From the IMG/VR virus record IMGVR_UViG_2870479586_000005: a DNA stretch of 42,950 nucleotides; one strand, 5' to 3'. The position numbers were made by a program, and so were the translations under genes. The notes under the pieces are model-generated. The model did no database searches. It was given only the letters and a program-made list of their open reading frames with translations, and was not told the DNA's origin. Positions 22,968 to 32,086 of the stretch are shown here, piece after piece. Position 1 is the stretch's first letter, and each line of letters starts with the position of its first letter. This DNA is from a virus (lineage: Duplodnaviria; Heunggongvirae; Uroviricota; Caudoviricetes).

Positions 22968-23044
22968 GTTTAACTCCAGGTGGCGCGGCAGTGTTCAGAA
23001 AATGGTGCCGGGTGTTCAATCCAGCACCGATATTATACCGTGTT

Positions 23045-23224
23045 TTACGCGTCAGGGGGTGTAATAGTATATCCAGCTATTTCTGCCAACTCGAGAAACG
23101 CCATCAGGCTGGCAATCCGTTCATCATCAGTCAGAACACGCACACCAACGATGTGTCCGTCCTTACGCTTGATAACAGCCCGGCATGTTTCCGGTAGTTC
23201 GCCTATAGATTCTTGAATATTCAT
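23045..23224 (-). CDS. 59-aa ORF behind a LexA-box promoter (candidate SOS-induced small protein)
   Basis: Translated by hand (below the track cutoff): MNIQESIGELPETCRAVIKRKDGHIVGVRVLTDDERIASLMAFLELAEIAGYTITPPDA. A GGGGGAAG RBS lies 3 nt (GAC) upstream of the ATG. 180 nt including the stop. Confidence 0.45.
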   Translation of the reverse strand: MNIQESIGELPETCRAVIKRKDGHIVGVRVLTDDERIASLMAFLELAEIAGYTITPPDA

Positions 23225-23246
23225 GTCTTCCCCCTAACGCCATTGC

Positions 23247-23262
23247 CTGTGCATTTATACAG
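23247..23262. promoter_or_regulatory. LexA-box-like site CTGT-N8-ACAG
   Basis: gcCTGTgcatttatACAGta is an exact match to the CTGT-N8-ACAG core with an AT-rich spacer. It overlaps the -10 of the promoter below. Confidence 0.5.
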
Positions 23263-23282
23263 TATTTTATGGCATTTGTCAT
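23254..23282 (-). promoter_or_regulatory. Sigma70-like promoter for the 59-aa ORF
   Basis: Minus strand: ATGACA-17 nt-TATAAA, ending about 30 nt upstream of the ATG at 23224. Confidence 0.45.
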
Positions 23283-23375
23283 AACGCCAGATACAATGAG
23301 GGAATAATGAACAATTATATTCACGTCGTGAATTTTATTAAACGGTTTTATAGGGGATTAAACCGTTTATGGTCA

Positions 23376-24017
23376 TTATTTATCACTCCTGTAAATTGAA
23401 ATTAACCATTTTCTAATCGTCGACGCTGCAGGTGGGTCAGAGTATTTCGCCACAAAAATACCGGATATGTATTGCACACCACGCGATAATGGCGCTGTCG
23501 GGTTTTCAGTAAAAAAACGATCAGCCAGTTCAATGGCTTCGCTTTTTAATCTGTGCTGTGGCCGTCCTCCGCCCTTAGTGCCAAGGTAACGCGCCAGTTG
23601 TTTGAAACGGTAGGCGATGATTAACGGTCGCATCATCATATTGAAAAAATCTCGGGCATCGTTGTCAGCGCCTTGCGCTATCAACAGTGCAAAAAACAGA
23701 TACGGGATTGTGTACACTTCAGGAGATATACGAACCCGTTCACAAGTTGGTGGAGCCAACTCAATAAGTAAGTCAGCCAGCGGATCCCCCTTTTCTCCAT
23801 GTTTGTAATAGCGATACAGAGGCCCGATATCGAGTTCACTCACGTCAATTTCAGGATGCCCGGCAACGGTTGTACGTATCTCTTCTGCCAGAGCGTCAAA
23901 TATTACCCCGGTCCGCTCAAGATAGAGCCTCCGGGTCGAACCGCGATCATCCAACGCCCGTAACATATCTAACCGGCTTACGAAAGTTTCAGGCCAGTCC
24001 TCATAGAAAGTTTTCAT
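23376..24017 (-). CDS. Hypothetical protein (213 aa) with a possible C-terminal HTH
   Basis: Preferred start MKTFYEDW, with GAGG 5 nt upstream. The track ORF starts at a GTG at 24053. The C-terminal ..GGGRPQHRLKSEAIELA...ASTIRKWL.. is HTH_7-like by eye only. Confidence 0.55.
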   Translation of the reverse strand: MKTFYEDWPETFVSRLDMLRALDDRGSTRRLYLERTGVIFDALAEEIRTTVAGHPEIDVSELDIGPLYRYYKHGEKGDPLADLLIELAPPTCERVRISPEVYTIPYLFFALLIAQGADNDARDFFNMMMRPLIIAYRFKQLARYLGTKGGGRPQHRLKSEAIELADRFFTENPTAPLSRGVQYISGIFVAKYSDPPAASTIRKWLISIYRSDK

Positions 24018-24085
24018 AATTACCTCGAATAATAAAAACTGCATTATTTGCACAATTTATTATTCGTTTTCACATCGCAGGGTTC

Positions 24086-24115
24086 TATAAAAAAGAAAAC
24101 CCGCCGAAGCGGGTT
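24086..24115 (-). terminator. Rho-independent terminator after the 92-aa gene
   Basis: Minus strand: AACCCGC-TTCG-GCGGGTT followed by TTCTTTTTTA. Confidence 0.7.
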
Positions 24116-24135
24116 AGTTAATAAGTTACACCAGG

Positions 24136-24414
24136 TTATGAGGCCATACCGTAAGCTTTTTTATGCATCCCATGGTCATAGCCCATATTATATGCTTCAA
24201 AAGCATCTTTATGACGGACATGCCCAGCCTGGCTTTCGGGTAAATCACCTAAAACAGAGTCATCAACCGCACGCGGAACGCCGATTAATGCATGCCACAT
24301 ACCTTTATCATAGGCACATCCACAACACTTGTGCCGCCCAACGTTACCCTGATTTGCAGAAAGAACATCAAACATACTGTCGTGACGATGTGACTTTTTA
24401 CAGATGTGTTTCAT
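24136..24414 (-). CDS. Cys/His-rich 92-aa protein, monocistronic
   Basis: MKHICKKSHRHD...GRHKCCGCAYDKGMWH...HVRHKD...HGMHKK. Has its own terminator downstream. Confidence 0.55.
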   Translation of the reverse strand: MKHICKKSHRHDSMFDVLSANQGNVGRHKCCGCAYDKGMWHALIGVPRAVDDSVLGDLPESQAGHVRHKDAFEAYNMGYDHGMHKKAYGMAS

Positions 24415-30438: not shown

Positions 30439-30452
30439 CTGAAGTTTCCTTC

Positions 30453-30486
30453 AAGCTGGCGCCAGGTGTTAACCTGGTGCCAGCTT
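30453..30486 (+). terminator. Strong hairpin after the lipoprotein gene (no U-tract)
   Basis: AAGCTGGCGCCAGGT-GTTA-ACCTGGTGCCAGCTT. 15-bp stem with one mismatch. Confidence 0.35.
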
Positions 30487-30513
30487 AGTCATCAAGTGCA
30501 TATTTAACTGTTT

Positions 30514-30589
30514 TATATGGGCGGTACTTTGACAGAGGTATTCGGTCTCGTGCTGGTCGTGGTCAAATACCTTTTTAAACGCAAATAGA
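30514..30589 (+). repeat. Direct repeat, copy 2 (orphan 3' remnant of a homologous gene)
   Basis: Encodes YMGGTLTEVFGLVLVVVKYLFKRK* with no upstream ORF. Compare LYMGGTLTEVFGLVLVVTKYLFKRK* at copy 1. Confidence 0.9.
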
Positions 30590-30612
30590 GTATTTCCACC
30601 CCAAACAACCTG

Positions 30613-31431
30613 TCAAAATGCTGAATCAGCAACAGATACAGCCGACTTTTTCCCCATTACCATCAATTTATCCAGTGTCATACTTCGCAGATTGTCGCTG
30701 TGGATCACCAGATACCCTGCCCGCTCAGCGATCTCTTTGAAAGCGTCAAAGGTCATCAGATGTTCGCCTTTGGCAACATGGCGCATCCTTGTCACTTTTC
30801 CATTTTTGATAGTGGTGATAAAAGAAAAATCCGGAATGGTTGGCTGATTTTCATCGAGTAGCAGGCAGTGGATGTATTCAATCGCCTCTAACATTTGCGT
30901 CTGTGACAGTTGTTCTATGTGAGAGACGGCGAAGCGTTGATGAATCATGGTGTAGGCATCGGGATACATCATGCCTTTCTTACCGACCAGCATATTAACG
31001 GCATCACGTAAGGGAGTACGGTCATCGGTAGTTGTACTCCGCCTCTCTGGGCGCTGGCTAAAATAACAATCTTCAAGCTTTTCGAAAACTTCCCAAGCCT
31101 GTTCTGTTTCCAGCATTTTGGCATGGCGAGCTGCGCCGCGTTCTGTCCAGAGAATGAGGGATCGGGTATGTTTAGCAACTGACTGACTATCTGTCAGTCT
31201 GTTTTTGAAGTCGCGTAATTCATTACCTTCCAGCTTAAAAAAATGCTTTCCTACGACAAATCTGGCGATGTTGCGCTTGAAGTTTTGCTGGATACCATTT
31301 ACTTCCGTGCCATACAAACTGGCAAGCAATTCAGTAGTGATGACGGGAAGTTGGTTATGATGTAGCGGAGAAAGGGATTCCGCAGATATTTGGATTGTCA
31401 TCGCAGTGGCCTCACTTAGTGTTTTTTTCAT
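30613..31431 (-). CDS. ORF6N/ORF6C-type (KilA-N-related) antirepressor-like DNA-binding protein
   Basis: ..LPVITTELLASLYGTEVNGIQQNFKRNIARFVVGKHFFKLEGNELRDFKN.. matches the ORF6N pattern. Start is at the ATG at 31431 or 31401. The track's TTG at 31449 is unlikely. Confidence 0.65.
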   Translation of the reverse strand: MKKTLSEATAMTIQISAESLSPLHHNQLPVITTELLASLYGTEVNGIQQNFKRNIARFVVGKHFFKLEGNELRDFKNRLTDSQSVAKHTRSLILWTERGAARHAKMLETEQAWEVFEKLEDCYFSQRPERRSTTTDDRTPLRDAVNMLVGKKGMMYPDAYTMIHQRFAVSHIEQLSQTQMLEAIEYIHCLLLDENQPTIPDFSFITTIKNGKVTRMRHVAKGEHLMTFDAFKEIAERAGYLVIHSDNLRSMTLDKLMVMGKKSAVSVADSAF

Positions 31432-31673
31432 CACCACCAGCGACGCCAATCATCTGGTGGTGAACTGTGCAGGGTTGGCGTAACCGGCTAAGTGAACCCG
31501 GCGCTTCCGCAGAAGCCCCCACACAGCCCACCATAATGCGAATGTGGCCGTGCCTAACACATAAAAAAACCGCTAACGCGGCTATGCGTCACTTAGATAT
31601 CCGGGACGCCAATCCCGGCAACCGATTTTGCGGCTGCGCGGAAACTATAGCCCCGGGCTTTTTCTAAGTCAAT

Positions 31674-31895
31674 TCAATCAACTTCAAACCTCCGGTGTTC
31701 ACATTCCATACACTCAACGGGAACATCATCGCGATGCAAGTCCACATATCCGACCCGCTTATACAACTCAATAATGTCCGGTAACGTGACCAGATGTTTT
31801 TCCGGTTCCAACACCTCAGCCCTGGTTACTTTGTAATCTGAAATATAGAGCACTATCCGCCCGTTCCGTGGTAACTCCAGTTTATCGCCAAACAT
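31674..31895 (-). CDS. Hypothetical nin-region protein (73 aa)
   Basis: ORF on the operon strand. No recognisable motif. Confidence 0.4.
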   Translation of the reverse strand: MFGDKLELPRNGRIVLYISDYKVTRAEVLEPEKHLVTLPDIIELYKRVGYVDLHRDDVPVECMECEHRRFEVD

Positions 31896-31969
31896 GTCCT
31901 TTCCCTCCGGGAAACCAATGATATTGACGATATTACACCCACAACGATTCGTTTTACGTCACTCCGCAA

Positions 31970-32086
31970 TCACCATACATACGTACCAATCCGTACATTC
32001 CCACCACAAAAATGGCATTCGGCGGGCACTGGTAATGGATTTTTAACGCGTGCTATTGCCTTGCGACGTATTTTCAACTCACTCAT
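31970..32086 (-). CDS. 38-aa CxxC ORF, possibly a truncated zinc-binding nin gene
   Basis: Translated by hand: MSELKIRRKAIARVKNPLPVPAECHFCGGNVRIGTYVW*. ATGA overlap with the upstream 74-aa gene. Only one CxxC pair occurs before the stop. Confidence 0.3.
   Translation of the reverse strand: MSELKIRRKAIARVKNPLPVPAECHFCGGNVRIGTYVW

Follow-up and report, generated by a model that had tools for sequence, protein, structure and literature searches.

The DNA analysed here, called the window throughout, is a 42,950-nucleotide (nt) record (IMGVR_UViG_2870479586_000005) that constitutes a complete lambdoid prophage of Escherichia coli, with the early-right operon on the minus strand. By exact protein match it belongs to CP027104.1. 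We examined its stretch at 23.0-31.9 kilobases (kb), where ten open reading frames (ORFs) on both strands lie between the DUF1367 gene (22371-22967) and the small nin ORFs. A first-pass annotation, made from the letters alone, had taken positions 22968-31980 as one accessory island in the nin position. The ten ORFs and the main landmarks among them are listed below.

23045-23224, minus strand: p59, 59 amino acids (aa), PHROG 340
23376-24053, minus strand: p225, 225 aa, PHROG 5215, which assigns no function
24136-24414, minus strand: p92, 92 aa, rich in Cys and His, PHROG 3941 (without function); content of slot B
24982-25470, plus strand: ImmA/IrrE protein, 162 aa, Pfam Peptidase_M78 (7.7e-18), PADLOC capP (2.4e-25), HELGH at residue 77
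25480-26085, plus strand: p201, 201 aa, two C-terminal hydrophobic segments resembling membrane helices
26510-27391, minus strand: p293, 293 aa, C-terminal zinc ribbon
27450-27695, minus strand: p81, 81 aa (71 aa in another annotation), between the two slot A genes, no family match
27863-28942, minus strand: DUF2971 protein, 359 aa, PADLOC PDC-S31 (1e-50), Pfam DUF2971 (9.1e-11)
29515-30438, plus strand: LprI/DUF1311-family lipoprotein with lipobox LTGC, Pfam LprI (3.2e-7), PHROG 5094 (4e-186)
30613-31449, minus strand: ORF6N antirepressor (AnrP/Ant-like), Pfam ORF6N (9.3e-22), PHROG 4792, anti-repressor (2.5e-163)
24115-24098 and T-tract to 24088, minus strand: intrinsic terminator after the p92 gene, stem AACCCGC/GCGGGTT, -11.8 kcal/mol, z -3.1
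24522-24549 and T-tract to 24559, plus strand: strong intrinsic terminator in slot B, 12-base-pair (bp) stem, -22.1 kcal/mol, z -3.8
31583-31568, minus strand: third terminator, that of the Rfam isrK match
24116-24719: slot B, with the p92 gene and both terminators
26108-29113: hypervariable slot A, the AT-rich core, with at least five alternative contents in Escherichia

A scan of the ten proteins against NCBIfam gave no useful names, and the Pfam and PADLOC scans returned nothing for p225, p92, p81 and p201. The anatomy described in the first-pass annotation was borne out in most respects: besides the ten ORFs on both strands, we found the two good terminators, each a hairpin followed by a T-tract, and the two LexA-box-like sites, which are exact matches to CTGT-N8-ACAG (23247-23262 and 24637-24652). 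The proposed AT-rich core corresponds to 26108-29113 and has a GC content of 0.354, compared with 0.444 and 0.459 in the adjoining parts and 0.481 in the whole window. The proposed internal recombination scar turned out to be a direct repeat of 81 nt (26004-26084 and 30507-30587, 90% identity). Its copy at 30507-30587 (plus strand) is what is left of a duplicated p201 3' end; this relic occurs in all Escherichia relatives and measures 353 nt in E. whittamii. The truncation suggested for the 38-aa ORF at 31970-32086 is not supported; the ORF yielded weak partial matches only.

Our favoured explanation, which we hold with somewhat more confidence than doubt, is that the stretch is a layered mosaic consisting of regulatory modules at its ends, accessory units fixed in the lineage, and slots nested within these, combined with a LexA-p59-Q switch. 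It builds on the anatomy, the conservation pattern, the matches to protein families and RNA models, and a positional identity with the Gifsy prophages, all of which were observed directly; we infer a defence activity of the cargo.

A conserved LexA box and p59 precede the genes leading to Q

The left end of the stretch and the genes that follow it in the early-right direction comprise the following features.

23247-23282, minus strand: predicted LexA-gated promoter, -35 ATGACA (23282-23277), -10 TATAAA (23259-23254), 17-nt spacing
22371-22967, minus strand: DUF1367 (IrsA homologue)
22081-22374, minus strand: DUF1364 (YbcO)
21497-22081, minus strand: Q antiterminator, Pfam Phage_antiter_Q (1.7e-32), PF06323

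LexA box 1 (23247-23262) overlaps the -10 element of the promoter at 23254-23282. To compare this region, we used six Escherichia relatives (five E. coli and one E. whittamii; L001-L004, L016 and L017) and cross-genus relatives found by a DUF1367 protein scan, namely Citrobacter murliniae, four Serratia species and Rosenbergiella. An exact LexA box was present upstream of the p59 homologue in seven of seven relatives (Escherichia, Citrobacter, Serratia, Rosenbergiella), within about 60 nt in six of them and at about 390 nt in Rosenbergiella, where dinI lies between. No other exact match occurs in the 20-kb loci of six of the seven, while E. whittamii keeps box 2 too. Furthermore, the p59 homologue, 39-49% identical outside Escherichia, directly precedes DUF1367 in each of the seven. 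The order in Rosenbergiella is LexA box, DinI (Pfam, 1.4e-22), p59 and DUF1367; that in Gifsy-2 is LexA box (11082-11097), dinI, a 73-aa ORF at the gftA position and irsA, and the DUF1367 protein of the window is 56% identical to Gifsy-2 IrsA. As judged from these comparisons, the left end, with the 59-aa ORF and the LexA promoter, is conserved backbone and not cargo.

The p59 gene is followed by DUF1367 after 77 nt, and DUF1367, DUF1364 and Q overlap. A terminator scan of the minus strand from p59 to Q gave one weak terminator-like match, inside Q, and the genes from p59 to Q would form an operon. On their way to Q, transcripts from the early promoter PR would face two terminators, that of isrK and the one at 24115-24098, as well as two units on the opposite strand. 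The first-pass annotation had argued that, unless antitermination operates, terminators would block read-through from PR to Q and that the promoter at 23254-23282 was potentially important for late-gene expression. Strong terminators and head-on units do lie between PR and Q, and this promoter, with its conserved LexA box, is the last one before the uninterrupted, overlapping p59-DUF1367-DUF1364-Q string; it appears to be LexA-gated and relevant to Q expression. For comparison, the Gifsy-1 antQ transcript begins 1.6 kb upstream of antQ (PMC4825925).

In the Citrobacter locus and in two of those Serratia loci that were checked, a Q of a different Pfam family directly follows DUF1364. Since the upstream block of LexA box, p59, DUF1367 and DUF1364 is kept despite this change of Q family, a module boundary falls exactly at the start of Q. 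The Q family is PF06530/DUF1133 in loci L018, L019 and L023 (about 10880-11460), compared with PF06323 in the window. We also observed a 100% match of an E. coli spacer of clustered regularly interspaced short palindromic repeats (CRISPR) in the DUF1367 gene (window 22826-22859).

p59 shares a domain with the ORF6N antirepressor, and the repressor has no autocleavage domain

36819-37232, plus strand: prophage repressor, 137 aa, Gifsy/RacR/DicA type, Pfam HTH_3 (1.4e-14)
31674-31895, minus strand: p73, final nin-block ORF and paralog of the p59 domain

Pfam finds only HTH_3, a helix-turn-helix (HTH) domain, and no S24 autocleavage/peptidase domain in the repressor, which shares 31% identity with that of Gifsy-2 (E 2e-11). 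The Gifsy repressors do not undergo cleavage; small antirepressors, controlled directly by LexA and encoded between dinI and irsA, inactivate them (Lemire et al. 2011, PMC3121763). A repressor without an autocleavage domain implies that some antirepressor must connect the SOS response to induction, and for this reason p59, which holds the position of the Gifsy antirepressor, is proposed to be an SOS-controlled antirepressor.

All the backbone repressors (window; L018-L024) carry a common C-terminal motif, LFxxLPESEK...KVxGFxxLFEELLxARK, while their N-terminal HTH halves are of two unrelated types; the Gifsy-2 repressor carries the start of the motif (LFNQLPEAEK). Among the Serratia phages, p59 is 78-83% identical, and their repressors are 27-31% identical overall but share the LPESEK motif. 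A p59-like domain was detected at residues 210-253 of the ORF6N antirepressor (hhalign 95.8%, E 7.6e-9) and at residues 7-56 of p73 (hhalign 95.4%, E 1.9e-8). We propose that this domain of about 45 aa, common to p59, the C terminus of the antirepressor and p73, acts as a repressor-binding module.

The protein search for p59 yielded seven clusters, each unnamed or called "hypothetical protein", and the phage collection contained one Escherichia record and two weak Stenotrophomonas matches. The p59 AlphaFold2 model (predicted local distance difference test score 78) had no structural neighbour. The comparison with Gifsy small proteins covered the annotated 73-aa ORF of Gifsy-2, and we make no claim that p59 is homologous to it.

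One alternative is that p59 is SOS-regulated without being an antirepressor: it would be a modulator of RecA or replication like DinI, or the first gene of an SOS-inducible Q operon, and the ORF6N antirepressor or another route would inactivate the repressor. The lack of detectable homology to validated antirepressors and of a structural match is consistent with this, as are the dedicated ORF6N antirepressor in the same phage and the finding that Gifsy-1 AnrP alone induces its prophage (PMC4825925). However, p59 sits at the exact gftA position, flanked by the LexA box or dinI on one side and by the irsA homologue on the other, it shares its domain with the C terminus of the ORF6N antirepressor, and its conservation follows the C-terminal motif of the repressor and not the HTH type. 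Given also that a repressor without an autocleavage domain needs an SOS-linked antirepressor, we consider this alternative unlikely.

The region at 37233-38178, beside the repressor gene, comprises about 950 bp without a convincing ORF. All its Rfam matches are below threshold (RprA-like, E 0.2; STnc240, E 0.9), and it could be home to a regulatory RNA or antitermination elements on the side of the second early promoter, PL.

The right end carries RNA elements of the P1-c4/IsrK type

31672-31644, minus strand: promoter-like site TTGACT-17-TATAGT, 10/12 consensus matches, directly upstream of the Rfam matches
31563-31650, minus strand: IsrK-like small RNA with c4 a1/b1 target element and terminator, Rfam isrK 80.4 bits (gathering 50)
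31453-31538, minus strand: C4-type antisense RNA element (P1 immI type), Rfam C4 74.5 bits (gathering 45)

The ORF6N antirepressor gene lies immediately downstream of these C4/IsrK-type RNA elements, and a c4-a1b1 match (52.9 bits; gathering score 46.7) overlaps the isrK match. A 40-aa ORF (31412-31534) at the icd/orf45 position overlaps both the C4 element and the start of the antirepressor gene; RefSeq has a 262-aa form of the ORF6N protein, whose start would be at 31401. In Gifsy-1, a small RNA unlocks translation of AnrP; AnrP in turn increases antQ expression and triggers prophage induction (PMC4825925). Judging by the protein-family and Rfam matches, we take the right end to be an ORF6N antirepressor gene under predicted RNA control of the P1-c4/IsrK type, a self-contained regulatory module and not anonymous cargo.

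The ImmA-p201 pair is a mobile cassette with a lineage-specific LexA box

24982-26085, plus strand: ImmA-p201 mobile two-gene cassette, the same pair occurring in other prophages and islands
24637-24652: LexA box 2 (ATCTGTATTTTTTTACAGAT), 330 nt upstream of ImmA

Elsewhere, the ImmA-p201 pair occurs at a Klebsiella prophage end by a tRNA gene; in Serratia marcescens it follows a Q-like gene, and in Salmonella it adjoins the remnant of an integrase gene. In all contexts examined, the neighbour of ImmA is the 201-aa protein with two hydrophobic segments, and no HTH repressor or antitoxin gene is adjacent. LexA box 2 is conserved in four Escherichia relatives (L001, L003, L004 and L017). In sequence type 131 (ST131), a deletion of about 80 bp takes half of it, and slot B is exchanged for a 77-aa plus-strand gene, with the segment carrying the terminator at 24522-24559 replaced. 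No exact LexA box was found upstream of ImmA-p201 in the Klebsiella, Serratia and Salmonella copies. That box 2 belongs to the cassette was rejected, given its absence in the other genera, which makes it lineage-specific at best; it probably provides lineage-specific SOS control of ImmA-p201.

A hairpin in the ImmA leader (24886-24932, CGTACCAG...CTGGTACG) has a fold z-score of only -1.75. The E. coli and Salmonella (L028, about 4400-4450) copies share the outer stem and differ in the inner sequence, and the hairpin may represent an operator or leader structure of the cassette.

A second alternative is that ImmA, SOS-induced via LexA box 2, cleaves the HTH repressor in the manner of ImmA/ImmR (ICEBs1), IrrE/DdrO and CapP/CapH. 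The protein is an M78 peptidase with an intact HELGH motif, it matches the capP profile (2.4e-25), and it is preceded by an exact LexA box located on the ImmA side of the slot B junction. Nevertheless, relatives with this repressor type in other genera lack the cassette, its copies elsewhere, at the ends of prophages or following Q, have no LexA box, half of the box is lost in ST131, and the partner always looks like a membrane-bound protein and not like an HTH substrate. Such a role of ImmA is, in our judgement, improbable.

Slot A carries alternative cassettes with candidate defence genes

The homology breaks that delimit slot A fall at 26107/29114 or at 26357/29075. Its alternative contents were as follows.

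Allele 1 (window): p293, p81 and DUF2971 genes
Allele 2: 134-aa gene, GIY-YIG/T5orf172 nuclease and 65-aa gene
Allele 3 (ST131 type): single 232-aa gene
Allele 4: transposase remnant and 266-aa gene
Allele 5: 366-aa HEC-08 protein (1e-173), small tyrosine recombinase, ETEC_3214 protein and 269-aa gene

The allele of the window was found in none of 5,426 complete E. coli genomes. In its DUF2971 protein, the PDC-S31 match (PDLC04990) is near full length (residues 32-316). Following the definition of the ADP-ribosyltransferase motifs as Tyr and ExE in PMC12522546, we located SHY at 181-183, with the conserved Tyr, and ENE at 254-256 (ExE). DUF2971 proteins have been predicted to be DarT-like ADP-ribosyltransferases (PMC12522546), and Aristaios, a DUF2971 protein of lactococci, is described as protecting against phages as a single gene, with abortive infection as the phenotype (PMC11381338). 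The DUF2971 gene is a candidate single-gene defence of the ADP-ribosyltransferase-like kind.

We also noted E. coli CRISPR spacers that match inside the DUF2971 gene (100%; 28719-28752) and at the start of the LprI gene (93%; 29507-29550). The DUF1367 and DUF2971 spacers are separated by 123 bp within a single array of strain OkiPb01700, and the DUF2971 cassette was absent from all the complete E. coli genomes searched.

The p293 protein consists of an N-terminal alpha/beta domain, a HEPN-like helical domain with the four-helix fold and the C-terminal zinc ribbon. Its family comprises at least 277 proteins of about 289 aa, the listed matches being 57-65% identical and ranging from Vibrio to Burkholderia. 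Some 80 positions are invariant in 30 sequences from several orders, and the family has no name. The gene occurs alone, in settings that resemble defence islands or mobile elements, beside SIR2, retron-type reverse transcriptase, toxin, integrase or resolvase genes. The sole R-x4-H of p293 (residues 91-96) lies in a low-confidence linker outside the helical domain. That p293 and DUF2971 form one system was rejected, as they were never found together in nine loci (Pectobacterium, Vibrio, Burkholderia), and we treat them as independent genes; both are likely single-gene anti-phage or abortive-infection factors.

In E. whittamii, an extra insertion between the 353-nt relic and the ORF6N gene matches PDC-M25A/B (8.5e-157 and 4e-96). 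The first-pass annotation had suggested looking for defence genes in the cargo, and the PADLOC run gave candidate defence matches here and in the relatives (PDC-S31, HEC-08, PDC-M25).

Conservation within Escherichia and across genera argues against a single island

The remainder of the early-right operon is made up of the following genes; holins and lysozyme come after Q in the early-right gene order.

36553-36750, minus strand: cro-like gene
36017-36493, minus strand: YdaT/cII-like gene
34686-35786, minus strand: O-like gene
33298-34689, minus strand: DnaB
31674-33259, minus strand: small nin ORFs

Among 5,426 complete E. coli genomes, 444 cover at least 80% of the DUF1364-DUF1367-p59-LexA-promoter segment and 433 cover the nin flank. 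In the six Escherichia relatives, the order p59, p225, (p92), ImmA, p201, [slot], LprI and ORF6N is as in the window. Seven of the ten genes are conserved in order, and the p92 gene is swapped in the ST131 type. The p225 and LprI genes, the latter on the opposite strand, are fixed in the Escherichia lineage and absent at the locus in other genera. The other genera keep the repressor, YdaT, DnaB, p78, p59, DUF1367 and DUF1364, and most also cro, O and p136, but their loci contain none of p225, p92, ImmA, p201 and LprI and no full ORF6N gene. Their p78-p59 interval measures from 0.9 kb (Rosenbergiella) to 4.3 kb of unrelated genes, compared with about 9 kb in the window, and includes DNA methyltransferases, an HNH effector-like protein (Serratia), an HTH, ImmA and DUF2513 trio and an EEP nuclease. 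From this comparison, the true limits of the hotspot would be about 23300 and 32610, with p59 and its promoter outside. A literature search found no paper describing this particular hotspot.

Two further loci are worth recording. In Serratia quinivorans (L020, 7710-9622), XRE-HTH, ImmA/IrrE (capP-like) and DUF2513 genes are lined up as in an operon and immediately precede the LexA box and p59. In E. coli FXCREC028 (L015), IS1 joins the LprI gene to P2-like tail genes, and slot A through Q is deleted.

These data bear on the initial proposal that 22968-31980 is one island interrupting the early-right operon with ten dispensable genes. The mixed orientations, the AT-rich core and the stretch's own terminators fit such an island, as does the absence of p225, p92, ImmA, p201 and LprI here outside Escherichia. 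However, p59 and its LexA box stand beside DUF1367 in every relative, the ORF6N gene has its own full set of c4/IsrK control elements, a regulatory type known from phages, and ImmA-p201 moves as a separate two-gene cassette. The breaks of slots A and B, the duplicated p201 end and the extra E. whittamii slot are independent layers. The first-pass annotation had itself held that the same ten genes in the same order in related phages would speak against an island. The alignment came close to this, as only the nested slots vary, and by that criterion the ordered conservation of seven of the ten genes in Escherichia argues against calling these genes accessory. What stands of the proposal is a variable cargo hotspot in the nin position, ranging from 0.9 to about 9 kb across genera; what falls is the single island, since the slots are layered, p59 and the LexA promoter belong to the backbone and the ORF6N gene is a regulatory module. 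The one-island reading is thus largely refuted by the conservation pattern, and we regard it as very improbable. That the LexA-like palindromes arose by chance in a region without an SOS link is hardly credible, because, although the window contains two exact CTGT-N8-ACAG sites against 0.45 expected and 6 of 100 shuffles reach at least two, the box recurs at the same place by 39-49%-identical p59 homologues in four genera, is the sole exact match in the 20-kb loci of six relatives, lies over a -10 element and precedes a dinI homologue in Rosenbergiella.

Proposed organisation and induction circuit

We propose that the layered mosaic with its LexA-p59-Q switch works as follows. In the first layer, the LexA-repressed promoter at 23282-23254 would drive p59 and most likely also DUF1367, DUF1364 and Q. 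Upon DNA damage, LexA would be cleaved, p59 would be made and bind the repressor, and PR and PL would open; the p59 transcript would also supply Q, downstream of the terminators between PR and Q. At that layer's right end, the ORF6N antirepressor would be held off by an RNA of the P1-c4/IsrK type, as in P1 immI and Gifsy-1 isrK-orf45-anrP. The second layer would consist of p225, ImmA-p201 with its own LexA box and the LprI lipoprotein gene, acquired between the ends in both orientations, together with the p92 unit with its own terminator; on the lipoprotein side it would be bounded by the duplicated 3' end of p201. The third layer would be the slots within the second, mainly 26108-29113, where flanking homology would let cassettes swap.

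A further, more speculative proposal, which we regard as possible but doubtful, is that the p59 domain is an unrecognised antirepressor module used three times, as LexA-controlled p59, as an ORF6N fusion under c4/IsrK control and in p73, where, encoded by the last PR-driven nin gene, it would serve as a feed-forward lock, and that the LexA promoter co-transcribes antirepressor and Q. If this is true, DNA damage would reach the late genes without PR transcripts crossing 9 kb of terminator-laden cargo, and the hotspot would be free to accumulate cargo.

Several points weigh against the layered mosaic and its switch. By count, the two exact palindromes are not significant, the strong evidence being the conservation of box 1 in relatives, and LexA box 2 is outside the ImmA-p201 cassette in other genera and half-deleted in ST131. 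LexA binding, an SOS-induced transcript and contact between p59 and the repressor are steps that we infer, and p59 showed no BLASTP alignment with the 73-aa Gifsy-2 ORF at the gftA position (hhalign 19%). PR read-through to Q may operate, no search for an N-like antiterminator or a put-like RNA having been made. Among the cargo, p293 lacks Rx4-6H at the usual HEPN position, and the PADLOC PDC and HEC entries are candidate families and not validated systems. Finally, Q of the window is frameshifted near codon 190 (around 21510), giving 194 aa compared with 223 aa in the ST131 copy, and the rest continues in another frame; Q of one relative (L001) has an internal stop. The frameshift may mean that the late genes of this prophage are defective, or it may be a sequencing error, and the circuit may not work in this copy.

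The prophage type is present in about 8% of complete E. coli genomes, with many ST131 strains among the carriers listed. Because it is so widespread, its induction logic bears on lysis and gene transfer caused by DNA-damaging antibiotics in those strains. A LexA-gated promoter just before p59-DUF1367-DUF1364-Q would explain the tolerance of kilobases of terminator-bearing, opposite-strand cargo. The nested slots offer a defined site for harvesting candidate defence genes, including the HEPN-like zinc-ribbon family and the DUF2971 gene.

Comparison with known systems

LexA-controlled antirepressors are also found in other phages, as exemplified by 186 Tum and N15 AntC. The switch proposed for the window most resembles those of Gifsy-1, -2 and -3 with GfoA, GftA and GfhA: the short HTH repressor lacks a cleavage domain and is 31% identical to that of Gifsy-2, the LexA box is located downstream of the replication genes and is not part of the immunity region, and a small ORF stands immediately upstream of the IrsA/DUF1367 homologue (56%), followed by Q, with dinI between box and ORF in one relative. 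In contrast to Gifsy, p59 has no demonstrable similarity to the ORF at the gftA position, dinI is missing in the Escherichia lineage, and the box of the window is 8-9 kb from the replication genes, compared with 1.3 kb, because cargo accumulated between them; the switch of the window is known from its sequence alone.

The right end follows the immI region of P1 and P7 (c4, icd, ant) and the Gifsy-1 isrK-orf45-anrP region (Hershko-Shalev et al. 2016, PMC4825925) in its promoter, a1/b1 target and IsrK terminator, C4-type element, small overlapping ORF and antirepressor gene, and in Gifsy-1 the RNA-antirepressor module is likewise near Q. It differs from these regions in its ORF6N-type antirepressor, whose C-terminal domain is common to p59 and p73, and in the place of the module, which here is far upstream of Q and separated from it by about 8 kb of cargo, its regulation being predicted from sequence.

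With its conserved flanks, alternative cassettes, low-GC cargo and matches to defence candidates, the hotspot is reminiscent of those of P2 and P4 (Rousset et al. 2022, PMC9122126) and of BstA-type prophage defence (PMC8585504). Unlike these, it belongs to a lambdoid backbone of Gifsy-like type, where it is flanked by the nin genes and the SOS/Q operon, its slots are nested in lineage-fixed units and bounded by a duplicated gene end, and its cargo consists of candidates. The DUF2971 gene parallels Aristaios (PMC11381338) in encoding a single DUF2971 protein (359 versus 316 aa) with an ADP-ribosyltransferase-like core and the Y and ExE motifs; Aristaios, however, comes from another host phylum and is plasmid-borne and not prophage-borne, and the kinship is known by the common domain alone. 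ImmA shares with ImmA/ImmR (ICEBs1), IrrE/DdrO, CapP/CapH and RmrA of RosmerTA the M78/IrrE-type HExxH domain and a link to DNA damage, here the LexA box. In contrast to these systems, it has no adjacent gene for an HTH substrate and no sensor domain, its 162 aa amounting to the protease domain only, and its invariant partner is the 201-aa protein with two C-terminal hydrophobic segments.

Collectively, every layer has a published precedent, be it LexA-controlled antirepressors, the c4/IsrK-gated Ant, prophage defence hotspots (PMC9122126) or DUF2971 defence, and no new principle is involved. The new points are the p59 family as a candidate antirepressor of an Enterobacterales-wide backbone, the p59 domain in Ant and p73, the nested slots with a duplicated gene end, and an unstudied HEPN-like family.

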